From Roseibium sp. SCP14 (GTDB taxonomy: Bacteria > Pseudomonadota > Alphaproteobacteria > Rhizobiales > Stappiaceae): a stretch of DNA of 24,000 nt. The position numbers and the translations under genes were made by a program. Position 1 is the first letter of the stretch. Each line of letters starts with the position of its first letter. A model generated the notes under the pieces. It did no database searches and had not been told where the DNA came from. It was given only the letters and a program-made list of their open reading frames with translations. This document shows, piece by piece, positions 2,737 through 21,845 of the stretch. The stretch spans positions 18,896 through 42,895 of the forward strand of contig NZ_JBDZYH010000013.1 in the NCBI RefSeq assembly GCF_040329475.1, written 5' to 3'.

Positions 2737-3318
2737 TCAGGCAGCGACGGCGCTGATCTGGTCATGAGCTTTGGCGAGTACCTCCTCACCCCCGAGGACC
2801 TGCTGGTCTGCTGCCACGATCTGAATATCGGTGATGCCGAGGAAACCGAGCAGGTGCTTCAGGTAACCGGTGACGAAATCGTCGTAGGCACCAACCTGCG
2901 TCATTGCGGACGCCATCGCGAGGATGGCGCGTTTACCCGTCAGCGTTCCGGCCGGACCCGTTTCGGTGTAGTTGAAGGTCACGCCGTGACGTGTGATCAG
3001 ATCGATCCATGCCTTCAGTGCCGCCGGGATCCCGAAATTGTAGACCGGCACACCTATGACGACCGTGTCGGCGGCCTTCAACTCGGCGATCAAGGTATCG
3101 GATAGAGCGAGCAGATTGCGCTGTTCGTCATTGCGATCATCAGCACTCGTCATGTTCGCGCCGATCCAGGAATTGTCGATCAGCGGAAGTCCATCAGCGA
3201 GATCACGAGACACGACAGTGTCTGGAGACAGGCGGGCAATCACCCGGTCGGTCAGATCCCGGGAAACGGAGCCTTCGGTACGGGCAGATGAGTCGATACG
3301 CAGAACGCTGTGTGGCAT
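2737..3318 (-). CDS. azoR: FMN-dependent NADH-azoreductase
   Basis: The C-terminal 193 aa of the 424-aa track ORF, starting at MPHSVLRIDSS (ATG = complement of 3316-3318), align by eye along their whole length with E. coli AzoR. Examples: 'LSDTLIAELKAADTVVIGVPVYNFGIPAALKAWIDLITRHGVTFNYTETGPAGTLTGKRA' and 'GFLGITD'. The upstream 231 codons of the track ORF overlap the LysR gene and are rejected. Confidence 0.9.
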   Translation of the reverse strand: MPHSVLRIDSSARTEGSVSRDLTDRVIARLSPDTVVSRDLADGLPLIDNSWIGANMTSADDRNDEQRNLLALSDTLIAELKAADTVVIGVPVYNFGIPAALKAWIDLITRHGVTFNYTETGPAGTLTGKRAILAMASAMTQVGAYDDFVTGYLKHLLGFLGITDIQIVAADQQVLGGEEVLAKAHDQISAVAA

Positions 3319-3420
3319 GGGGCTGATCCTTCTTGGACGTTGACTGAAGCCAGGTTCGTGGGCTGACCGGATATTTGTTTCTTGCAAATTCAAACGCAAT
3401 ATTCCCAAATGCACAGGATA

Positions 3421-3436
3421 TGTGCGTTTACGCACA
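3421..3436. promoter_or_regulatory. Perfect palindrome TGTGCG-TTTA-CGCACA in the azoR/LysR divergent intergenic region (candidate LysR operator)
   Basis: Seen directly in the sequence. It is a 6-bp inverted repeat with a 4-bp spacer, 15 bp upstream of the preferred LysR ATG. A second, imperfect dyad TTGCAAATTCAAACGCAA lies at 3382-3399. Function is inferred only from position. Confidence 0.3.
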
Positions 3437-3450
3437 GACAGGGCGCGGCC

Positions 3451-4332
3451 ATGGACAATTGGAACGAAATCCGGACTGCCTATCACGTGGCACGGCTCGG
3501 CTCCGTCAGTGGGGCCGCGAAGGTACTGGGGGTCCACCATGCAACGGTGATCCGACACATCGATGAGCTTGAAAAAACTCTGGGAGCAAAACTCTTCCAG
3601 AGGCACTCGAGAGGCTACACCGTTACCGAGGCCGGACAGGATCTGCTTCAGGTTGCGCAGGCGACCGACGATCAGTTCAGTCAGCTGGGCAACCGCATAA
3701 AGGGGCGTGGCGGTGAGGTAACCGGTGAACTGGTGATTACGTCGCTCGCAATCGCTTCGGCGGCGATGACTTCCCTTTTGGCGCGGTTTCAGGCCATGCA
3801 TCCTCACCTGATCGTGCGCTTCCTGACCGACCCGCGCCTGTTTCGACTGGAATACGGTGAGGCCCATGTGGCTATCCGGGCGGGCAGCCCTTCCAGTCAG
3901 CCGGACAACGTCGTTCAACCATTTGCTCGCCAACGGTTTGCCATCTATGCCTCCCGGGCGTACATCTCTCGCAATGGCATGCCACAAGACGAAAACGAGA
4001 TTGTTTCGCATCGATTTGTCGGTTCGGATGATCTAACGATCAACTCACCCATGATCGCCTGGTTGCGTGACCATGTGCCTGAAGAAAATCTGATTTTCCG
4101 AGCCACCGACATGACGGTCATGCGTGAGGCAACGCTTGCGGGCGTCGGTCTGTGCTTCCTGTCGGTCATGGAGGCGGCCTCTCACCCGGAGTTGGTAGAG
4201 GTCATACCCAGCAAGGAAGACTGGGTGGTTCCCTGGTGGCTCCTGACGCATGTCGATCTGCATCGAACGGCCAAGGTTCAGGCTGTATTGTCGTTTCTCA
4301 AAGAAGAAGCGAAAAAAGCTACGGTCATTTGA
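3451..4332 (+). CDS. LysR family transcriptional regulator
   Basis: 'MDNWNEIRTAYHVARLGSVSGAAKVLGVHHATVIRHIDELEKTLGAKLFQRHSRGYTVTEAG' is a canonical LysR N-terminal wHTH, followed by a substrate-binding domain of about 200 aa. It is divergent from azoR, the classic LTTR arrangement. The track start at 3382 is a TTG; in-frame ATGs occur at 3409 and 3451, and I prefer 3451. Confidence 0.9.
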   Translation: MDNWNEIRTAYHVARLGSVSGAAKVLGVHHATVIRHIDELEKTLGAKLFQRHSRGYTVTEAGQDLLQVAQATDDQFSQLGNRIKGRGGEVTGELVITSLAIASAAMTSLLARFQAMHPHLIVRFLTDPRLFRLEYGEAHVAIRAGSPSSQPDNVVQPFARQRFAIYASRAYISRNGMPQDENEIVSHRFVGSDDLTINSPMIAWLRDHVPEENLIFRATDMTVMREATLAGVGLCFLSVMEAASHPELVEVIPSKEDWVVPWWLLTHVDLHRTAKVQAVLSFLKEEAKKATVI

Positions 4333-4799: not shown

Positions 4800-4921
4800 A
4801 GAACGGATCGAACCGCAGCGGAGATCCAGCTGTCTGCAACTGTTGACTGTTGCGATTGCCTGCAACCTGCTGCAGTCTTCTTGCCATTGGCAACTCCGGG
4901 CGCGGTGATCCAGGCGGTAAA

Positions 4922-5794
4922 ATGGACAGACGGGATGTTGTGGCGGCTGTCTTTGCCGCGTTCATCTGGGGAGCAACCTTTCCGATTTCGGCCCTCGCGC
5001 TTGAATCAACGCCGCCTATTTTCTTCACATTCTTACGGTTTTTCTGCGCAGCGCTTTTTGTGGTGACCATCGCGCGCCCACGGGTTTCGTGGTGGAAACT
5101 GACATTGGCCGGCCTGCTTCTGGGAGCCGGGCAATACGGATTGATGTTCACATCGATGGCTATGGGTCTTCCAGCAGGACTGGCATCGCTGCTGGTGCAC
5201 ACCCAGGCATTCTTCACGATTCTGATTGCGATGGCCGTCTTTTCCGAACGGCTGGATGGCCGCGCAGCTTTTGCCGTCCTGCTGGCACTTGCCGGACTTG
5301 CATGCCTGATCCTCGATCGCTCGGATGCCAGCGCGCTTGAAGGTATCGGGTTGATCCTGCTGGCCGCTCTGTGCGGTGCCGGCGGCAACATTGTTCTGAA
5401 ATCCATGGGCCAGGTCGACATGCTGGCGGTGGTGGTCTGGATGAGCCTGATGTCACCCATTCCCCTGGGAATTCTGTCGCTGCTGCTTGAAAGCAACGGT
5501 GACCCGCTCAGCCTCTTCGCCAAGGTTGGCTGGATGACTGCGTTCGCAGTCGCCTATTCCGCCTTGCTCGCGACCATTGTCGTCTTCACGATCTGGGGTC
5601 GACTACTGGTGAAATACGACGCCTCGAATGTTGCGCCGTTCTTTCTACTGGTTCCGGTTTTCGGCATCAGCCTGTCGGCTGTCATTCTGGGCGAGCGTCT
5701 GACGACGTTTCAGATGACAGGCGCGGGCCTGATTTTTTGCGGTTTGGCCTTGACCTTGTGGCCTCGCAGCAAACGCGAACTGGAAGCTGGTTGA
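4922..5794 (+). CDS. eamA: EamA-like DMT exporter (homologue of the O-acetylserine/cysteine exporter family)
   Basis: Starting at MDRRDVVAAVFAAFIWGATF, the protein aligns by eye with E. coli EamA/YdeD. Compare 'LPAGLASLLVHTQAFFTILIAMAVFSERL' here with 'MPAGLASLVLQAQAFFTIMLGAFTFGERL' in E. coli, and 'VAPFFLLVPVFGISLSAVILGERLT' with 'VAPLSLLVPVVGLASAALLLDERLT'. The substrate is not established for this copy. Confidence 0.8.
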   Translation: MDRRDVVAAVFAAFIWGATFPISALALESTPPIFFTFLRFFCAALFVVTIARPRVSWWKLTLAGLLLGAGQYGLMFTSMAMGLPAGLASLLVHTQAFFTILIAMAVFSERLDGRAAFAVLLALAGLACLILDRSDASALEGIGLILLAALCGAGGNIVLKSMGQVDMLAVVVWMSLMSPIPLGILSLLLESNGDPLSLFAKVGWMTAFAVAYSALLATIVVFTIWGRLLVKYDASNVAPFFLLVPVFGISLSAVILGERLTTFQMTGAGLIFCGLALTLWPRSKRELEAG

Positions 5795-5825: not shown

Positions 5826-6437
5826 TCAACGCTTTGATACGCTCTCAAACTTTCGGTGAAAATCGTCGGCGTTGTTGCTGCGGGGATAGGGTTCGCCCGG
5901 AACCTGACAGCCGAGAAAATCACACAGTGGTTCCCACCCCGATCCCAGCTCATAGGTTAAGAGACGGTCCGGACCAAACGCTGCCTGAACGTCGGATATG
6001 TTCTTTTTGTACGTCGCGATAATATGGTCGCGATCATCCAGACGGCCCTTGAAAACACGTTGAGCAACCAGTCTTTTCCCCACCGTGTTTGGATCGTCTC
6101 CGTTCCTGAGAGCTTTCAGTATGGTGCCGTCCATACTCTTGAACCAGCTGTCGACATCGCGAACCGACAGGATGATCTTGGCGTCGGGATAATGGGCGCT
6201 CAGTTCCCGCCAGAAAAATGCAGCGGGCCAGTCGACGGTTGCCCGGTAATCCGAAAACACTTCGTGCCAGTCAGGCAAGACTCCCATCGCGGCCGTTCGC
6301 CAAAGCGCGACGCGTTCCGGGTGAGGCACAACCTCGTACATGTGGTAGCACGGTCCATACCCCAGGATTTCCAGCGCCTTTTTGAGCGACTCCGTGCCGG
6401 TTCGGCCAAATCCGGCGCCAATTATCGAAAGTGTCAC
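5826..6437 (-). CDS. Sulfotransferase family protein (Sulfotransfer_4-like, PAPS-dependent)
   Basis: 203-aa ORF. The start is GTG (complement of 6435-6437) with an AAAGGAA RBS 6 nt upstream. The N-terminus 'IIGAGFGRTGTESLKKALEILGYGPCYHMYE' is the 5'-phosphosulfate-binding loop typical of this family. 'ILSVRDVDSWFKS' fits the 3'-phosphate-binding region. Confidence 0.8.
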   Translation of the reverse strand: MTLSIIGAGFGRTGTESLKKALEILGYGPCYHMYEVVPHPERVALWRTAAMGVLPDWHEVFSDYRATVDWPAAFFWRELSAHYPDAKIILSVRDVDSWFKSMDGTILKALRNGDDPNTVGKRLVAQRVFKGRLDDRDHIIATYKKNISDVQAAFGPDRLLTYELGSGWEPLCDFLGCQVPGEPYPRSNNADDFHRKFESVSKR

Positions 6438-6557: not shown

Positions 6558-7424
6558 TTAAAATCGCGCGTTTTCCCGGAATGCCGTCGGTGAACGTCCG
6601 CAATGGCGTTTGAAATCCCGGCTGAAGTGAAACGGGTCGGCGTAGCCGCAACGTTGGGCGACGGCTGATACATTCTCGGAACTGACCGTCAGCAGATGCT
6701 CGGCCTGCACCATACGCTCCCGGCGAAGCCAGGAGACCGGGGAGGTTTCTGTCGCGGCCTGGAACCGTCGGAACAGTTGCGACTGGCTGAGACCGGCAAC
6801 CACAGCCATTGCCGTTATGTCCCAGTTGCGGGACAGATCCTTGCGCAATTGTTGAATGACCTTGGATACCGGGTCGACCTCATTCAGGGGCGGAGTTCCG
6901 GCTCGCTTCGTGAACACTTTGGCAAGAATCGCCGCGACCTGTGTGTTCATATGAGCATCCATGAGCGGATGCTGACTGGCCAGTTGTTGGATGATCCCCT
7001 CGAAATCGGGCAGCAGGTCCGCCATCTCGTCGACAACCGGCTCAGCCCGCAGATTGAGCTGCATGAAGAAGTTGTCGAGGGTCGCACCCGACAGTGCTAT
7101 CCAGACATAGGACCAATGGTTTCCCGGCGTGGCGCGATGCGCATAGGTGCGGGATGTATCCAGCCAGGCCAGACAAGCCTCTTCGGCAGCGACTTCTCTG
7201 TCACCGACACGGATCCAACCCTCGCCGGACAGCGTCAGGATCAATGTGTGCTGATGATATTTCCGGTCAACGATCCCGCCGCTCCCGGGGTCATGCGTTC
7301 GTCCACCGGCCGCGACCTGATACGGCCAGGGCGAAACGGCCGGGTCACTGCTGTGGAAGTATATCTGTGTTCCGCCAATCACCTTCATGAATGCGAGTAT
7401 TGTCCAGCTGAATGCCAATGTCAT
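6558..7424 (-). CDS. AraC family transcriptional regulator (N-terminal cupin-type sensor plus C-terminal double HTH)
   Basis: 288-aa ORF. The C-terminus 'WDITAMAVVAGLSQSQLFRRFQAATETSPVSWLRRERMVQAEHLLTVSSENVSAVAQRCGYADPFHFSRDFKRHCGRSPTAFR' is a textbook AraC/XylS HTH pair. The N-terminal 'HTLILTLSGEGWIRVGDRE' is cupin-like. An alternative ATG at 7388 is possible. It is divergent from the GRE operon. Confidence 0.85.
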   Translation of the reverse strand: MTLAFSWTILAFMKVIGGTQIYFHSSDPAVSPWPYQVAAGGRTHDPGSGGIVDRKYHQHTLILTLSGEGWIRVGDREVAAEEACLAWLDTSRTYAHRATPGNHWSYVWIALSGATLDNFFMQLNLRAEPVVDEMADLLPDFEGIIQQLASQHPLMDAHMNTQVAAILAKVFTKRAGTPPLNEVDPVSKVIQQLRKDLSRNWDITAMAVVAGLSQSQLFRRFQAATETSPVSWLRRERMVQAEHLLTVSSENVSAVAQRCGYADPFHFSRDFKRHCGRSPTAFRENARF

Positions 7425-7517
7425 GCATTCTTTGCGCGATTTGGTGCGGGTATCTTCTAGTCAGTATCCGTCTTGCTGAACATGTGCAGCTATCAGGTCC
7501 GCTTAGAGGGGCATGAA

Positions 7518-9053
7518 ATGCCAATTGAAAATCCGACCCTCCGCCACATCGTCAACGATCCCACGCTGAGCTTCGCGCAAAAGGCACGTGCCCTTTCGCT
7601 TGAAGCGGAGAATTCTCTGGACTATCCGTCGATCGATGACGAAACGCGCGCCGCACTGGAGGCGCGGGTGATCTGTGACATGTATGAAGGCCACGCCCCT
7701 TACAAGCCGCGTTACGTTCTTCCGGACTATGAGGTCGTTCTGAAAAACGGCAGCGAATGGTTGGAGTTGCCGCCGCCGCAGACGCTTGATGAGGCAATCA
7801 ACACGCTGATGATTGCCTATCACCATGTGCCCTCGGTAACGGCGATGCCGGTTTTTATCGGTCATCTGGACAATTTGCTGTTGCCCTTTTGCGATGGGGT
7901 ATCGGACGACGCGCTGTATCAAAAGATCAAACTGTTCTGGCGATACCTGGACCGGGTACTGCCCGACGCCTTCATGCATGCCAACATCGGCCCGACAGAC
8001 AACCGCGTTGCCCGGGCAATCCTGCGTGTTGATGCCGAACTCAAGCAAATTGCCCCCAATCTGACCTTCTCCTACGATCCGGAAATCAGCGGCGATGACA
8101 TATTGCAACTGGCGGCTGAAAACATAACGAAGTGCTCAAAGCCCCATATCGCCAACCATCCCTTGCACCGGCAAGTGTTCGGTGAGCGCGGCTACGGCAT
8201 TGTCAGCTGCTACAATGCACTACCGGTTTGTGGTGGAGCCTCAACCCTGACGCGGGTGAACCTCGCCGCCGTGGCTGAGCGATCGGCGGGCCTGAACGAT
8301 TTTCTGACAAACAAGTTGCCCTTTTATGTCGACCTGAATTTCCGGCTGACTGAGGCGCGGATCGATTACCTGTTCAATCAGTCCGGTTTCTTTGACAGCT
8401 TTCTTGTGACCGAAGGCTGGGTTGACGAGACACGCTTCACCGCGATGTTCGGCATCTTCGCTATGGCTGAGGCCGTGAATATCCTGCAGGACAAGGCAGG
8501 TGCCCAAGGGCGTTACGGTCATGCTCCGGAAGCAAACGCCATCGGCCACGAGATTTCCAGGCAGCTGGAACAGCTGGTGGGTGCGCACGAGCTGAAAAAT
8601 GTCTGGCATGGAAGGGCGATGCTGCATTCTCAAGCAGGTTTGTCGACCGATACAGGGCTTACGCCGGGTGTGCGCATTCCCTACGGTACTGAACCTGACC
8701 CGGTTTCTCACATACTGGCACTGGCACCTCATCACCGGCACTATGCCTCCGGCGTCAGTGAAATCCTGACGCTCGACGAGACCGTCAAGGCAAATCCGAA
8801 TGCCGTCGTTGATTTGTGCAAGGGTGCCTTTGCCAGGGGTTTTCGGGAGTTTACCGCAAATGTCGGTGGCAATGACCTGGTTCGCGTGACCGGCTACATG
8901 ATCCGCCTGACCGACATTGAGAAATTCAATGCGGAGGCCGGTTCGCGGACAAATACGACGGCGCTAGGAGCGGAAGCTGCCGACTGCACGTCGATCCTGA
9001 AACGCAAACTGCGGGTCGTTGCCAGTGAACTCCTTGCGGGCACAAATCAGTAA
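7518..9053 (+). CDS. yjjI: Predicted glycyl-radical enzyme, YjjI/HI0521 family (DUF3029-type)
   Basis: About 511 aa from the ATG at 7518, with GAGGGG RBS at 7506-7511; the track start at 7473 is a TTG. A glycyl-radical-like core 'VRVTGYMI' has its Gly codon at 8892-8894, about 52 aa from the C-terminus. A candidate thiyl-Cys loop 'SCYNALPVCGGAS' has its Cys codon at 8229-8231. A YjjW-type activase follows immediately. Size and gene pairing match the YjjI/YjjW pair of E. coli as I know it. Confidence 0.78.
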   Translation: MPIENPTLRHIVNDPTLSFAQKARALSLEAENSLDYPSIDDETRAALEARVICDMYEGHAPYKPRYVLPDYEVVLKNGSEWLELPPPQTLDEAINTLMIAYHHVPSVTAMPVFIGHLDNLLLPFCDGVSDDALYQKIKLFWRYLDRVLPDAFMHANIGPTDNRVARAILRVDAELKQIAPNLTFSYDPEISGDDILQLAAENITKCSKPHIANHPLHRQVFGERGYGIVSCYNALPVCGGASTLTRVNLAAVAERSAGLNDFLTNKLPFYVDLNFRLTEARIDYLFNQSGFFDSFLVTEGWVDETRFTAMFGIFAMAEAVNILQDKAGAQGRYGHAPEANAIGHEISRQLEQLVGAHELKNVWHGRAMLHSQAGLSTDTGLTPGVRIPYGTEPDPVSHILALAPHHRHYASGVSEILTLDETVKANPNAVVDLCKGAFARGFREFTANVGGNDLVRVTGYMIRLTDIEKFNAEAGSRTNTTALGAEAADCTSILKRKLRVVASELLAGTNQ

Positions 9054-9888
9054 GATCCTGACCTGGTCCTGCGTCGACGGACCGGGCAATCGGATGGTCC
9101 TTTTCATGCAGGGGTGCAATTTCAACTGCGCCACCTGCCACAATCCGCATACGATCGGTCAATGTGACAGTTGCGGCGAGTGCCTGCCCGTTTGTGAGCC
9201 GAAAGCTCTGTCGCTGGTGGACGGAAGGATTGCATTCGAGCCGTCCGTCTGCACGCAATGTGACGCCTGCTTGGACGTTTGCCCGATCAGCGCCAATCCA
9301 ATGGTTCGCAGTTACACCGTTCAGGAGATCCTGGATCTGCTTCATGAGCATGCCGGGTTTCTGTCCGGCATCACCATCTCGGGCGGTGAAGCAACGCTGC
9401 AATTGCCCTTTATCCGCAGCCTCTTCTCGGCGATGGGAGAGGATGTAGACCTGCGCCATCTCACGCGCTTCATCGACAGCAACGGGCATCTTGGACCTGT
9501 TGCCTGGAAGTCGGTTTTGGAGGTTACCGACGGCGTTCTTCTCGACATAAAGGCGTTTGATCCAGAGCTGCACGTTCATTTGACGGAAAGATCAAATGCC
9601 AGAAGCCTCGCAAGCGCGCGGCTCTTGCACGAGGCCGGAAAGCTGTATGAATTGCGTTTTCTGATGGTTCCGGATGCGACAGACCGTGACGAGGAAATCG
9701 ACAGTCTGATCAAATTTGTTCAGTCGCTTGATGGTCCGGTGCGATTGAAGCTGAACGCCTTTCGCACCCATGGGGTTCGTGGTGCGGCTGCACAGTGGCC
9801 GGCCATGAAGAAAAAGCGTGTGGAGGCGGCTGCGGAGCGACTGGTGCATGCGGGGCTTGGTCCCGTTGAACTGCCTGCCCTCTGGTAA
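9019..9888 (+). CDS. yjjW: Glycyl-radical enzyme activating protein, YjjW family (radical SAM)
   Basis: 'WSCVDGPGNRMVLFMQGCNFNCATCHNP' contains the activase VDGPG motif and the radical-SAM CX3CX2C (9115-9138). Two ferredoxin-like CX2CX2CX3C motifs are present (9163-9195 and 9250-9282). 'ISGGEATLQ' is the SAM-binding GGE motif. Only non-ATG starts are compatible with these motifs (TTG 9019, GTG 9025, TTG 9034), and all overlap the yjjI 3' end. Confidence 0.85.
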   Translation: MPVNSLRAQISKILTWSCVDGPGNRMVLFMQGCNFNCATCHNPHTIGQCDSCGECLPVCEPKALSLVDGRIAFEPSVCTQCDACLDVCPISANPMVRSYTVQEILDLLHEHAGFLSGITISGGEATLQLPFIRSLFSAMGEDVDLRHLTRFIDSNGHLGPVAWKSVLEVTDGVLLDIKAFDPELHVHLTERSNARSLASARLLHEAGKLYELRFLMVPDATDRDEEIDSLIKFVQSLDGPVRLKLNAFRTHGVRGAAAQWPAMKKKRVEAAAERLVHAGLGPVELPALW

Positions 9889-9919: not shown

Positions 9920-10900
9920 TCAATCGCAAAAGATTGCGGCAAATACCCTGTCGTAGATTGCCTCGACAAGCGCTGCTTCCTCGGTCCCCTGGCGGGCGAG
10001 ATTGCTGAGACCCGGCGCGGCATTCACCTCCAGAACAACGGCTTCGTTTTCTGAAGATAAGCCGTCGGGAACGATCATGTCGACGCCGGCATATCTAAGC
10101 GACAGGATATCCGCCGCTTGCTGCGCGGTTGCAAGAATTTCCGGGGCTAATTCAGGCGTGACGATCCTGGCAGTTCCCCCGCAAGACAGGTTGGTCACCG
10201 GCAGCAGCGTCACTTCCTGTCCGTTTTCGGGCACGCTTTCCAGATCCAGCCGCTGGGCGGCCAGTTCCCGGATAATACGGCTATCAGATACCGGCAGTTT
10301 CGCATGGGTTGCCAGCAGTTCCGCCAAGTTTTGTGTACCGTTGCCGAAAATGACGGGACGCTTTCGCTCGATGGCGCAAAGCACTTCACCGTCAAGAACG
10401 ACGACGCGAAGCTCCCGTCCACGGATTTCCGGCTGCACGAGCAAATGTTCGTGGTTTTTGGCGAGACATTGCAGCGCGGATCCAAGGGTGTCGAGCGTGT
10501 CGACCCGCATGACACCCTGGCCTTCCTGACCGATGTTCGGTTTCACGAAGAGCGGAAACCGCTTTTCCTCGGTGAAGGTCAGAAGGTCGTCGTCGATGGG
10601 CGTGTTGTCGCTGATCTTATCGCTGAAGACAAAATGGCTGTCGGGAACGCTTATGCCGGCCTCGGCAAGGAACCTGGCTGCATAAGCCTTGTCGTTGGCG
10701 ATCTCCGACGCGCCGAGCCCATTCAGGTCGAACCGGGTGCCTTTGAAATACCAGCGTTTGCCCGCCGGGCTCTCGACCATGCCGGCGTGGCCATAAGGAT
10801 CGCCGGCGGACAGGCGTAGGCCCCTCCGGGCGCAGAAGCGTTCAAGCAATTGAAAAACGAGGGACCGGCTGCCCGGATCCCCCGCGTCAAACGAGCCCAT
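9920..10900 (-). CDS. ATP-grasp domain ligase (RimK / cyanophycin-synthetase-N-terminal-like), substrate unknown
   Basis: ATP-grasp hallmarks: 'FPLFVKPNIGQEGQGVMRV' (ATP-binding Lys and Gly-rich loop), 'LLVQPEIRGRELRVVVLDGEVL', and 'YAGVDMIV...VVLEVNAAPGL' (Mg/ATP-binding Asp/Glu-Asn). I prefer the ATG at 10900 (MGSFDAGDPG). The track start at 10909 is a TTG that would overlap the lolA stop by 4 nt. Confidence 0.75.
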   Translation of the reverse strand: MGSFDAGDPGSRSLVFQLLERFCARRGLRLSAGDPYGHAGMVESPAGKRWYFKGTRFDLNGLGASEIANDKAYAARFLAEAGISVPDSHFVFSDKISDNTPIDDDLLTFTEEKRFPLFVKPNIGQEGQGVMRVDTLDTLGSALQCLAKNHEHLLVQPEIRGRELRVVVLDGEVLCAIERKRPVIFGNGTQNLAELLATHAKLPVSDSRIIRELAAQRLDLESVPENGQEVTLLPVTNLSCGGTARIVTPELAPEILATAQQAADILSLRYAGVDMIVPDGLSSENEAVVLEVNAAPGLSNLARQGTEEAALVEAIYDRVFAAIFCD

Positions 10901-10905
10901 TCGGG

Positions 10906-11553
10906 TCAATTCTTGCCTTGCCGTGCGTTGGCCAGATAATCGATCTTGAACAGGTCCGGATTGGTCGGACCGTTGGAGACCACGTTATAGACCGCTACAG
11001 ACGTGTCGTAGCCCTGCTGGTCGGTCACGGTCCACTGCTTGAGCGCATAGTCCTTGGCGTCGAAGATCAGTGTCAGCGTGCCGGAATTGAACTTCGTCTT
11101 GTCGAAGATGGTTACGGTAATCAGATCCGATTCAACCAGAACATTGGTGACGTTGGTATCCTTCTGGAGATCAATCGTATCGGACAGAAGGAAGCGCAGC
11201 GGGGTCTGGCCAAGTGGCCAGATGTCCTGAGTGTTGAGTTTGCGGTCGCGAACGGAAACGGACTTGCCGTCCGCAACGATGTCCAGCACCGAAGGCTTGT
11301 TGTAATAGAAGCGGACCTTGCCGGGACGGGCCATGTAGAACTTGCCGTCAGACTGGCTGCCGTCTGGGCCGAACTGAATGAAGTCTCCGTGCATGGTCTT
11401 CACGGAGTTGAAATAGCTGTTCAGGTCCTTGAGGGCTTTTTGCTCGTTTTCCGTCAGCGCGTGCGCGGGAGCAAGAGCGGCTACGGCAATGGCTGCGGCA
11501 AGAAGCGGGCGCGTAACGTGCCTTGCCAGTTTGTGAGCGAAATGTTTCAGCAT
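10906..11553 (-). CDS. lolA: Outer-membrane lipoprotein carrier protein LolA
   Basis: 215 aa from the ATG at 11553 (MLKHFAHKLARHVTRPLLAAAIAVAALAPAHA|L, a Sec signal peptide). 'LNSYFNSVKTMHGDFIQ...GKFYMARPGKVRFYYNKP' is the typical LolA fold signature. It sits downstream of ftsK, as is common in proteobacteria. Confidence 0.85.
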   Translation of the reverse strand: MLKHFAHKLARHVTRPLLAAAIAVAALAPAHALTENEQKALKDLNSYFNSVKTMHGDFIQFGPDGSQSDGKFYMARPGKVRFYYNKPSVLDIVADGKSVSVRDRKLNTQDIWPLGQTPLRFLLSDTIDLQKDTNVTNVLVESDLITVTIFDKTKFNSGTLTLIFDAKDYALKQWTVTDQQGYDTSVAVYNVVSNGPTNPDLFKIDYLANARQGKN

Positions 11554-15679: not shown

Positions 15680-15849
15680 CAATGATCCGGCGGTCGTTAC
15701 GCATAACTTTGACCCGACCCTATCGCCTCCTTGGTAAATCTCTTATTAACCAAGCGGGCAGGGGCGTGCATTTCCAGCGGATTGCCAGTCGTCCGGTTCT
15801 TGCCTAAATTTCCTTGCGGCTCTCTCTACTTGATTAGTAAGGATTTTTC

Positions 15850-16506
15850 ATGGCTGGCAGCAAAGATCCGATTTCTGTCGTTTGTTTTGGCGACTCTCTC
15901 ACGTGGGGCTTCAATCCGGTGGATATGTCCCGCTATGGCCACGACATCCGCTGGACACGGCTGCTGCAAAAGGATCTCGGACCCGATTTCTATGTGGTCG
16001 AAGAGGGCGTGAATGGCCGCACGACGGTCTTCGAAGACCCGGTCAAGGGCGACAAGAACGGGCTGGAACACCTTTTCACCGTTCGAAAGACCCATATGCC
16101 GATCGATGTCCTCATCATCATGCTGGGCACCAACGATCTGCAGGATCGGTTCGGCATGAACGCGGAAACAATCTCGATTGCCATCGGACGCTTGCTTTTC
16201 CTTGCAACCCAGCCGACCGATGACGTCGAAGGTCGGGCTCCGAAAGTGTTGTTGATGTCGCCGCCACCGCTCGGAGATCTCCAGGGGACGCCGTTCGAAT
16301 TGCAGTTCTCCAGTCGCAGCCAGGAAGAATCCACAAAGCTCGCCGACGCTTACCAGTGCAAAGCCGAAGAATATGGGGTCGCTTTCTTTGATACAGGCAC
16401 CGTGATTTCGGCCAGTCCGGTCGATGCCATTCATTTTGAGGCCGAACCACAGGCGGACCTGGCCAAGGCGATCGCCGTTGAAGTACGCAAACTGGTGGGG
16501 CGATAG
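15850..16506 (+). CDS. SGNH/GDSL hydrolase, arylesterase/acyltransferase (MsAcT-like)
   Basis: All four SGNH blocks are present: 'VCFGDSLTWG' (Ser nucleophile), 'EEGVNGRTT', 'IIMLGTNDL', 'VDAIHF' (Asp-x-x-His). It is collinear by eye with the Mycobacterium smegmatis acyltransferase/perhydrolase MsAcT. The TAAGGA RBS lies 7 nt upstream of the ATG. Confidence 0.85.
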   Translation: MAGSKDPISVVCFGDSLTWGFNPVDMSRYGHDIRWTRLLQKDLGPDFYVVEEGVNGRTTVFEDPVKGDKNGLEHLFTVRKTHMPIDVLIIMLGTNDLQDRFGMNAETISIAIGRLLFLATQPTDDVEGRAPKVLLMSPPPLGDLQGTPFELQFSSRSQEESTKLADAYQCKAEEYGVAFFDTGTVISASPVDAIHFEAEPQADLAKAIAVEVRKLVGR

Positions 16507-20057: not shown

Positions 20058-21845
20058 TTGGTGAATATTGCAAGCCTGAGTGAAAGAAGCCGTGTCTGGC
20101 GACTTTTGGCCCTGCATGTTTGGCAACGTACCCTTAAATGGATGCATGGCGGACCGATTTTCCGCATGCAGCCGTTTTCGGCTGTTCCCGCGCGTCTTCT
20201 GATCGCTCCTCAAGATCTGCGTACTGCAGATGCAACCAACGCTGCCGATATCTATGGCGGAAGATTCCTTTTTTCCGGTCATCTGGTGGAAACGCAAGGC
20301 CGCTCGCCCTTCGAGCTGGAGGCGGTGCACGAAGATTGGCAGCGGGAGTTGCACAGTTTCGGTTGGCTCAGGGACCTGCGTGCTTCCGACAGTCAGATCT
20401 CCCGGCAAAATGCCCGCGCCCTGGTGGAAGACTGGATCAGGTACAGCGGCCGCTGGCACGACGTGGGGTGGGAAGCCGCTGTCGTCACAAGACGTATTCT
20501 GTCCTGGCTGGCACATTCCCCGTTCATTCTCCAGGACGGTGATGCCGAGTTTTATCGGAGTTTCGTCAAATCATTGGCCCGTCAGGTCCGTTACCTGCGC
20601 CGGACCATAAACGAAACCGAAGATGGTGTTGAGCGGCTGCATGCGGCGCTGGCAATTGCCTCCGCCTGTATTTCCATGGCCGGGCAGGGACGGTTTGCGC
20701 GCCAGAGCATTCGCCGTCTGGAGCATGAGCTGACGCGGCAGATCCTTCCCGATGGTGGGCATATCTCCCGTAATCCAAGGGCTCTGATCGACATTCTGGC
20801 CGATCTCCTGCCGGTTCGTCAGGCCTTCGTTTCGCAAGGGCTGGAAATGCCTCCCGCCATGCTGCAGTCCGTCGACAGGATGATGCCCCTGTTGCGGTTT
20901 TTCCGGCACGGGGACGGAGCGCTGGCACATTTCAACGGCATGGGTTCGACACCCAGTGATCTGGTTGCCACGATCCTTGCCTATGACGATGCCCGGGGGG
21001 CTCCACCGGTCAACGCTCCCCATTCTGGATATCAGCGCCTCAGCGGGGCGTCTTCGGTGGTATTGATCGACACAGGTCCCGCTCCTGCAATTTCGGTGTC
21101 GGGTGACGCGCATGCCGGTTGTCTTTCCTTCGAGTTTTCATCCGGAGTGAACAGGCTTGTCGTCAATTGCGGCGTGTCTTCGAAATCCAATCCACTCTGG
21201 CGCAAGGTGAGCCGGTCAACCGCCGCCCATTCGACGGTGACCGTAGAGGACACCTCCTCTTGCCGCTTTCTGTCGGAAAAACCCTTTGGGCATTTGCTTG
21301 GCGCCCCCATCCTCTCAGGTCCTGGGGATGTTCCGCTGGAGCGGGAGGACGACAAGGCCGGGAGTCGGATCACTGCCTCGCATGACGGTTACGCAGCCGA
21401 ATTCAACGTTCTTCATGAGCGCGATCTGCGCCTGTCGGCTGACGGTACGGTGCTTGACGGCATCGATACGCTCAAGGCGGTCGGCGATGTGGACCCTGAA
21501 CAGCTTTACGCAGTTCGTTTTCACCTTCACCCAGGTTTGAGAACGTCGCTGATCCGAGGTGGATCCGCGGTTCTTCTGGTGTGCAGAGACGGGGAGGCCT
21601 GGGAGTTCGAGGCGCCTGGAAGCGAGCTGAGCCTGGAAGAGAGTATTTATCTGTCCGATGTCTACGGCCATCGCAAAACCGAGCAGATCGTCGTTGCCGG
21701 GTCTCTTCTGGAAGCACCGTCCGTCGGCTGGCAACTCCGCAAGACGGCCACCGCCAAACTCAGCCGGCGCGGAACCAGCGACTTTGACGAGATGAATGAG
21801 GCGGATGTACCGGAGGAGCCGCAAGAGCTGCCGCTCGAGGAATAA
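20058..21845 (+). CDS. Heparinase II/III-like family protein (conserved, function unknown in this context)
   Basis: 595-aa ORF; the start is TTG at 20058 or GTG at 20061. '[12 protein letters not shown]' and '[24 protein letters not shown]' match the heparinase II/III-like C-terminal domain pattern. The position between rsmB and purH is one I recognise from alphaproteobacterial genomes. Confidence 0.72.

Follow-up and report, generated by a model that had tools for sequence, protein, structure and literature searches.

The closest described relatives of the gene pair considered here are YjjI and YjjW of Escherichia coli (b4380/b4379) and HI0521 and HI0520 of Haemophilus influenzae, which are represented by the family models TIGR04040 and TIGR04041 and by the Pfam family PF11230. 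These pairs comprise a predicted glycyl-radical enzyme (GRE) and its activase, and the family ranges across enterobacteria, Haemophilus-type gut and oral bacteria, and marine alpha- and gammaproteobacteria. To our knowledge, no other GRE of E. coli seems still to lack an assigned reaction. A further pair is encoded in a 24,000-nucleotide stretch of the genome of Roseibium sp. SCP14, the whole of which is referred to here as the window. Bases 7518-9888 of the window probably constitute a self-contained cassette of two genes, which encode a YjjI-family GRE and a dedicated YjjW activase and lie beside a divergent gene for an AraC-type regulator, and Gly459 and Cys231 of the enzyme would form the radical relay. 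Taken alone, the window provides one more catalogued orthologue; comparison across the family adds the likely catalytic residues and a lead on the substrate.

The YjjI/YjjW pair of Roseibium

The yjjI gene (7518-9053, + strand) runs from an ATG at 7518, preceded by a Shine-Dalgarno-like GAGGGG, to a stop codon at 9051-9053, and encodes 511 amino acids (aa). These limits come from a map of open reading frames (ORFs) and a check of coordinates, which also located every feature that a preliminary description of this DNA had reported. That description named the pair as YjjI and YjjW, and the call is borne out by full-length matches at the equivalog level. YjjI scores 709.9 bits against TIGR04040 (cutoff 498.3), with residues 8-499 lying on positions 3-497 of the 497 in the profile, and 672.6 bits against PF11230 (DUF3029; cutoff 23, E 3.4e-202). 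YjjW scores 336.1 bits against TIGR04041, the YjjW family glycine radical enzyme activase (cutoff 250.2). The pair is real, yet RefSeq and the family models already carry exactly this name: it is already catalogued, because the YjjI sequence matches WP_352950358.1 exactly ('YjjI family glycine radical enzyme [Roseibium sp. SCP14]'). What still gives it interest is the chemistry of the family and the lead on the substrate. The family is compact: of the clusters formed at 50% identity, only 489 reach E<=1e-3 in a set of 1.84 billion representative sequences, and about 25 of these are full length.

Identity to the E. coli proteins is 59% for YjjI and 47% for YjjW, and the lengths are similar (511 versus 516 aa for YjjI; 287-289 versus 287 aa for YjjW). 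The Roseibium pair shares with its E. coli and Haemophilus counterparts the SCYN and RVTGYM motifs, the gene order, and an overlap of about 29 nucleotides (nt) between the genes. It differs in that residue 238 of YjjI is Cys in Roseibium and Ala in E. coli, and in that the neighbour of yjjI is the AraC regulator gene in Roseibium and deoCABD in E. coli. An FNR-type box, a further point of difference from the E. coli pair, was not found upstream of Roseibium yjjI. For wider comparison we used a marine set of 81 genome loci and 95 further loci from metagenomes, which represent distant lineages (176 in total). The closest genome locus is that of Roseibium sp. SCP15 (L002; 92%).

The activase gene, yjjW (9019-9888, + strand), is identified by TIGR04041, by Pfam matches to Radical_SAM, Fer4_12, and Fer4_7, and by identity to the E. 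coli protein. Its motifs are those expected for an activase that uses S-adenosylmethionine (SAM). The sequence CNFNCATC (9115-9138) provides the CX3CX2C motif of a predicted radical-SAM [4Fe-4S] cluster site, in agreement with the Radical_SAM match; VDGPG lies at 9073-9087, and SGGEATLQ (9379-9402) contains the GGE SAM-binding motif. A ferredoxin-like insert (9163-9282) holds two CX2CX2CX3C motifs (9163-9195 and 9250-9282), predicted to bind two auxiliary [4Fe-4S] clusters, and residues 48-92 are matched by Fer4_7, Fer4_10, Fer4_9, and Fer4. The next-best family matches are PFLA, hydroxyproline dehydratase activase, and TIGR02494. Some distant YjjW partners of ~243-251 aa have no ferredoxin-type matches (L086-L088, in an archaeal context, L093, and L156), so the two-cluster insert may not be universal in the family.

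Two starts can be considered for yjjW. The ORF from TTG 9019 encodes 289 aa and that from GTG 9025 encodes 287 aa, the latter giving a 29-nt overlap with yjjI. In E. coli, the overlap of the two genes is also 29 nt, and in the alignment Met1 of its YjjW falls on the third residue of the window ORF. GTG 9025 is the likely true start because it reproduces both the overlap and the alignment of Met1. The arrangement of the junction is conserved more widely: in all 81 genome loci, yjjW is the next gene downstream of yjjI and has the same orientation, and in 75 of the 95 metagenome loci the two genes are same-strand neighbours. The distance from the yjjI stop codon to the codons for VDGPG is exactly 20 nt in 59 of the 81 genome loci, and this constant spacing suggests that translational coupling of the two genes is conserved.

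Catalytic residues and fold of YjjI

The preliminary description took VRVTGYMI to be a glycyl-radical-like core. This sequence begins at residue 455 and places Gly459 (GGC, 8892-8894, + strand), the predicted radical site, 52 residues before the C-terminus. Gly459 is present in all 190 YjjI sequences that were aligned, as are Arg456, Ser230, Cys231, and Asn233. When the family profile was searched against sequences in the Protein Data Bank (PDB), 'vRvtGY' was placed on 'iRVSGY' of E. coli pyruvate formate-lyase (PFL), pairing Gly459 with PFL Gly734. By alignment, the equivalent residue in E. coli YjjI is Gly465. An August 2026 preprint, which names the protein an 'uncharacterized putative GRE', reports that a probe designed to trap radicals labelled this glycine in living cells (10.64898/2026.08.13.742689). 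The PS00850 pattern, taken as quoted in the preliminary description, is [STIV]-x-R-[IVT]-[CSA]-G-Y-x-[GACV], and the window sequence L-V-R-V-T-G-Y-M-I falls outside it at positions 1, 5, and 9. The departure that had been remarked on is genuine and is a property of the whole family, whose consensus across the 190 sequences is [VI]R[VI][TS]G[YF][LM][VIA][KR].

The same alignment upholds the proposed glycine but not the proposed cysteine. The thiyl radical had been assigned, as a possibility, to Cys238 (TGT, 8229-8231, + strand) in a PVCGGAS loop. This cysteine is real, lies seven residues from an invariant one, and is found in 42 of the 190 homologues, including the closest relatives of the window protein and a Haemophilus-type clade. 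However, the position is other than Cys in 148 homologues (Gly in 81, Ala in 52, and Arg in 10) and E. coli YjjI carries Ala here, while among 19 diverse members of the family only the window protein has Cys there and S230-C231-Y232-N233 is invariant. Cys238 is unlikely to be catalytic, because it is not conserved, and a thiyl radical at this site is scarcely credible. The thiyl-radical cysteine is most likely Cys231 (TGC, 8208-8210, + strand), because it is conserved in 190 of 190 sequences, aligns with PFL Cys419 ('ivSCYN' on 'iaCCVS' in the profile search, which leaves Cys238 unpaired with it), and occupies a hairpin tip in the predicted structure. It is the sole invariant cysteine; C53 is Cys in 177 of the 190.

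The AlphaFold (AF2) model of YjjI has a predicted local distance difference test score (pLDDT) of 88.6 and a predicted template modelling score (pTM) of 0.89. In it, Cys231 is at the tip of a hairpin at 226-236 (strands 226-229 and 233-236), with Cys238 beside the tip, not at it, and Gly459 is at the tip of a second hairpin (strands 454-456 and 461-463). As modelled, the two tips would correspond to the two-finger-loop layout of GREs.

A Foldseek search of the PDB with this model placed NrdD, the class III ribonucleotide reductase (RNR), at the top, with structures from Prevotella copri, phage T4, and S. thermophilus matched at a query-normalized TM-score (TMq) of 0.70-0.75, E values of 2e-17 to 1e-14, and 12-14% identity. 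HypD, PflD/YbiW, the glycerol and propanediol dehydratases, and PFL ranked after it. No solved structure of YjjI was found in the PDB, where the top sequence match in the profile search is PFL (E 0.005). The relation to NrdD can also be detected in sequence: hhalign of the YjjI family against E. coli NrdD gives a probability of 89.8% and an E value of 1.8e-6 over 336 columns, with the match beginning at NrdD residue 121. NrdD also has a C-terminal glycyl-radical loop and a Cys finger loop. Unlike NrdD, YjjI is without the ATP-cone, the specificity region, the C-terminal zinc ribbon, and the region of the second active-site Cys. No NRDD or ATP-cone Pfam match was found in YjjI at E<=0.01, and no CX2C pairs of a zinc ribbon were found in its C-terminal region. 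In the hhalign alignment, NrdD 'FNCML', which carries the second active-site Cys (the C175 region in E. coli), lies opposite a two-residue deletion in YjjI, 'PRY--VLPDY', which includes the invariant R65-Y66. The activases differ as well, that of NrdD being the small NrdG and that of YjjI being PflC-like with a two-cluster ferredoxin insert.

From these comparisons of sequence and model, YjjI appears to be an NrdD-like barrel in a trimmed form, which would be unable to use the reduction chemistry of NrdD, because it is without the second active-site Cys, the ATP-cone, and the zinc ribbon, and because Cys231 is its sole invariant cysteine. This bears on whether YjjI could act as a reductase in the manner of an RNR, converting a nucleoside, a nucleotide, or a ribose phosphate to a 2-deoxy sugar with formate or a thiol as reductant. 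Such a function would suit an enzyme whose closest solved fold and detectable sequence homologue is NrdD, and whose genes have a nucleoside context (in E. coli, yjjI adjoins deoC), but the deletion opposite 'FNCML', the lack of a second invariant Cys (even C53 is not constant), and the missing ATP-cone, specificity region, and zinc ribbon make it unlikely.

The PFL-type GREs (PflB, HypD, the glycerol and propanediol dehydratases, CutC, and PflD/YbiW) have a barrel fold like that predicted for YjjI, at a TMq of ~0.7, and their Cys loops and Gly RVxGY loops align with those of YjjI. Compared with them, YjjI is ~250-300 aa shorter, as the preliminary description had pointed out for characterised GREs, and has the three mismatches to PS00850. 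The legacy annotation 'formate acetyltransferase' would make it a PFL-like 2-ketoacid formate-lyase, in which a Cys-Cys relay serves to cleave a C-C bond. The matches of the family profile to the Cys and Gly loops of PFL fit this annotation, as does an activase most like those of the PflA/PflC type. The PFL-like Pfam family, PF02901, also matches YjjI at 17.9 bits, although this is below the gathering score of 24.3 and covers residues 162-252 only. Against it, PFL C418-C419 aligns with Ser230-Cys231 in 190 of 190 YjjI sequences, so that the Cys-Cys pair is absent; YjjI is also ~250 aa shorter than PFL, with a fold that ranks nearer NrdD, and formate-lyase activity is very improbable. In the eliminase group of GREs, the residue at Cys+2 is Glu; in YjjI it is Asn233.

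A possible nucleoside substrate

Leads on the substrate come from the genes that lie beside yjjI in other lineages. A core nucleoside gene, for transport or catabolism, is present within 5 kb in 22 of the 65 distant loci that each extend over at least 8 kb, representing 10 of 40 YjjI lineages defined at 70% identity; in many cases it shares an operon with the pair. Two types of array recur. In 12-16 loci (e.g. L176 and L153), yjjI and yjjW are followed on the same strand by genes for Bmp/PnrA, an ABC ATPase, and two permeases, and in the Haemophilus-type loci L100-L107 they are followed by nupC and a purine nucleoside phosphorylase (PNP) gene, with an orfH-like GT9 gene upstream (compare PMC13552136). 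Clustering and Pfam annotation of the 95 further loci located IU-nucleoside hydrolase in 8 loci, PfkB in 10, and PNP in 8, and nucleoside hydrolase, PfkB kinase, and PNP genes adjoin the cassette in L084, L149, L156, L089, and L037.

Two further examples come from the surroundings of distant members of the family. In P0138, genes for a nucleoside hydrolase, an ADP-ribosylglycohydrolase-family protein, a PfkB kinase, and PNP precede YjjI-YjjW on the same strand, and genes for a major facilitator superfamily (MFS) transporter and Bmp follow. In P0139, YjjI-YjjW lies by an ADP-ribosylglycohydrolase-family gene, a nucleoside hydrolase gene, and an ABC permease gene. In E. coli itself, yjjI is divergent from deoCABD, of which deoC is the gene for deoxyribose-phosphate aldolase. 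Other distant contexts were uninformative (the archaeal P0126, and P0127, P0133, P0134, and P0141). As a separate observation, ADP-ribosylglycohydrolase genes recur with nucleoside hydrolase and PfkB genes by yjjI in two distant lineages (L084, 1187-2206; L089, 7449-7874; and L090).

Two families of nucleoside transporter, unrelated to each other, are thus associated with the pair, and this convergence, taken with the NrdD-like fold, gives the strongest present indication that YjjI acts on a nucleoside or a ribosyl derivative. At the level of the family, we put forward a nucleoside or a nucleoside-derived ribosyl compound as a tentative assignment, short of an even chance, and it is weaker still for the clade of the window. 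The chemical step would be expected, from sequence and model, to be a redox-neutral radical elimination or lyase reaction, not a reduction of the RNR type or a C-C cleavage of the PFL type. Four features speak for this substrate and this type of reaction: the NrdD-like fold, the single invariant Cys, the presence beside it of Asn instead of Glu or Cys, and the operon linkage to genes of nucleoside transport and catabolism in many other lineages. The fuller proposal that YjjI is an NrdD-derived minimal GRE, which carries out an undescribed radical reaction on a nucleoside or ribosyl moiety, such as redox-neutral 2'-dehydration or C-N/C-O elimination, is speculative and we hold it to be rather doubtful as it stands.

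The most likely mechanism of the pair would begin under anoxia with cleavage of SAM by the [4Fe-4S] cluster at the CX3CX2C motif of YjjW, electrons being supplied by the two ferredoxin-like clusters, as the activase family suggests. The resulting 5'-deoxyadenosyl radical would take a hydrogen atom from Gly459 of YjjI to give the stored glycyl radical, in line with the probe labelling of Gly465 in E. coli. The radical would then move to Cys231, and not Cys238, on the adjacent finger loop, from where the thiyl radical would take a hydrogen atom from the substrate; conservation, the alignment with PFL Cys419, and the hairpin geometry of the model all point to this residue. If the proposal of an undescribed reaction on nucleosides is true, it would define an anaerobic branch of nucleoside catabolism that is common to enterobacteria, Pasteurellaceae, gut anaerobes, and marine Roseibium. 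With the nucleoside lead, the search for the reaction of YjjI narrows to a limited number of testable substrates.

A number of observations weigh against a nucleoside substrate. In the marine clade to which the window belongs, nucleoside genes accompany only 3 of 74 loci, the exceptions being L037 (nucleoside hydrolase, PfkB, NupC, and DeoB) and L053 and L056 (DeoB), and Pfam annotation found no nucleoside gene near the cassette in the window. An alternative role for the neighbouring PNP_UDP_1 genes would be disposal of the 5'-deoxyadenosine that the radical-SAM activase produces. The register of the hhalign alignment is imprecise near the NrdD Cys loop, where NrdD C384 lies three residues and a gap away from C231. 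Our search of the literature on YjjI, YjjW, DUF3029, HI0521, and glycyl radicals with nucleosides found no assignment of a reaction or substrate, in agreement with the preliminary description, which knew of none. Furthermore, co-expression in E. coli ties yjjI to genes of nitrate respiration, not to the deo genes (PMC3228777).

The co-expression data raise the alternative that the pair has a role in anaerobic metabolism of nitrogen oxides (nitrate, nitrite, or nitric oxide). Biclustering of E. coli and Salmonella data in 2011 grouped yjjI with nar genes, including narG, and with FNR/NarL-like motifs (PMC3228777). In addition, both genes of the pair are induced under anaerobic conditions in Yersinia intermedia, and one locus has an NnrS gene upstream. 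However, anaerobic or FNR control would be expected of any oxygen-sensitive GRE and says little about its substrate, no nitrogen-oxide gene recurs by yjjI in the 176 loci, and the window has no FNR box upstream of yjjI. On balance, a function in nitrogen-oxide metabolism is improbable.

A different alternative is restricted to the marine alpha- and gammaproteobacterial clade, in which the substrate could be some other, non-nucleoside small molecule that is sensed by AraC, for example a sugar, an osmolyte, or a sulfonated compound, so that the link to nucleosides would not be transferable. The 3 of 74 loci with nucleoside genes fit this, as do the presence of the AraC partner in ~16 of 81 loci and, in the window, neighbouring genes for a sulfotransferase and an EamA exporter. 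Against it, about 30 columns of active-site type are invariant across the family and TIGR04040 is a model of the hypothetical-equivalog type; only two near-identical genomes share the sulfotransferase, EamA, and ATP-grasp neighbours; and L037, L053, and L056 carry nucleoside genes within the marine clade. A separate substrate for this clade is a minority possibility that we nevertheless take seriously.

Regulation and surroundings of the cassette

The gene divergent from yjjI (6558-7424, - strand) encodes an AraC-family transcriptional regulator of 288 aa, with a cupin-type AraC_binding domain and HTH_18 (6.6e-22; HTH_AraC is also matched); no NCBIfam equivalog above cutoff was found for it. 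This protein is the probable local regulator of yjjI. A full-length orthologue that is divergent from and adjacent to yjjI is present at 15-16 of the 81 loci, all of them in the half of the YjjI tree that includes the window. The suggestion that the module is small-molecule-inducible is only partly borne out, since the AraC gene on which it depends accompanies the pair in just ~16 of the 81 related loci.

The 93-bp spacer between araC and yjjI was searched for regulatory sequences. It contains no canonical FNR/FixK/NnrR box or palindrome, only a clade-conserved TGCGGGTAT..TC.AG element, and scans for consensus promoters and for terminators gave results at chance level. The conserved element (7445-7460, + strand) reads TGCGGGTATCTTCTAG in the window, and alignment of 10 AraC-linked loci gives the consensus TTGCGGGTATTATCAAG, with invariant or near-invariant columns T46, G47, C48, G50, T52, A53, T57, C58, and A60. 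In the window, the right half of the element is degenerate. Judged by its conservation, the element is possibly a promoter or an operator.

Other neighbours in the window are genes for an EamA protein (4850-5794, + strand), a sulfotransferase (5826-6437, - strand), an ATP-grasp protein (9920-10909, - strand), LolA, and FtsK. All were rejected as functional partners of the pair, because only the near-identical loci L002 and L003 share them. A Pfam scan of the immediate neighbours of the 81 loci found no recurrent flanking gene beyond AraC (16 loci); there are minor clade-specific flanks, such as U32 peptidase, GATase, and Aldolase_II with IF-2B, and otherwise the flanks vary widely.

Repeated horizontal transfer of the cassette is consistent with the neighbour-joining tree of YjjI, which mixes Woeseiaceae and Lysobacterales (gammaproteobacteria), Rhodoferax (betaproteobacteria), Devosia, and Rhodobacteraceae, and which has Roseibium at three places. 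The idea of a horizontally acquired accessory region therefore has some basis in this mixing of alpha-, beta-, and gammaproteobacteria, but the window itself bears no marks of a mobile element: it contains no tRNA genes, its repeats are short and at chance level and do not flank the cassette, and its GC profile is flat. Synteny of the window is also kept in Roseibium sp. SCP15.

Several genes of the window can be described further. The sulfotransferase belongs to Sulfotransfer_4 (PF17784) and has no NCBIfam match, the EamA protein resembles an O-acetylserine/cysteine exporter, and the two flank the AraC gene in the closest relatives only. The ATP-grasp protein is a stand-alone protein of 329 aa, encoded convergently with yjjW and next to lolA, and it most resembles cyanophycin synthetase in the ATP-grasp part of that enzyme (131.6 bits, against a much higher cutoff of 850). 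An ORF of 424 aa at 2737-4011 (- strand) has a Flavodoxin_2/FMN_red match at residues 236-420 only; because Pfam matches nothing in the first 235 residues, its start may be over-extended or it may include an unrecognised domain. A 202-aa ORF at 15826-16434 (- strand) has no Pfam match, and a heparinase II/III-like protein of 595 aa is encoded at 20058-21845 (+ strand) in housekeeping surroundings (aminotransferase, M48 peptidase, and RsmB).

Two of the clade-specific flanks are of interest in their own right. At some loci in Rhodobacteraceae, Peptidase_U32 genes (one of ~330 aa and a partner of 187-205 aa) are the same-strand genes immediately upstream of yjjI; examples are L011, L012, and L014, at ~0.9-1.9 kb upstream, and L036, L039, L043, L045, and L049. 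They resemble oxygen-independent hydroxylases of the UbiU/UbiV type and would be a second module for anaerobic adaptation beside the cassette. In Woeseiaceae-type loci, which form a gammaproteobacterial clade (L020, L023, L047, L048, L051, L054, and L055), convergent genes for Aldolase_II and IF-2B (MtnA-like) lie 0-1.5 kb downstream of yjjW, and these two are the enzyme pair of the 5'-deoxynucleoside dihydroxyacetone phosphate (DHAP) shunt.

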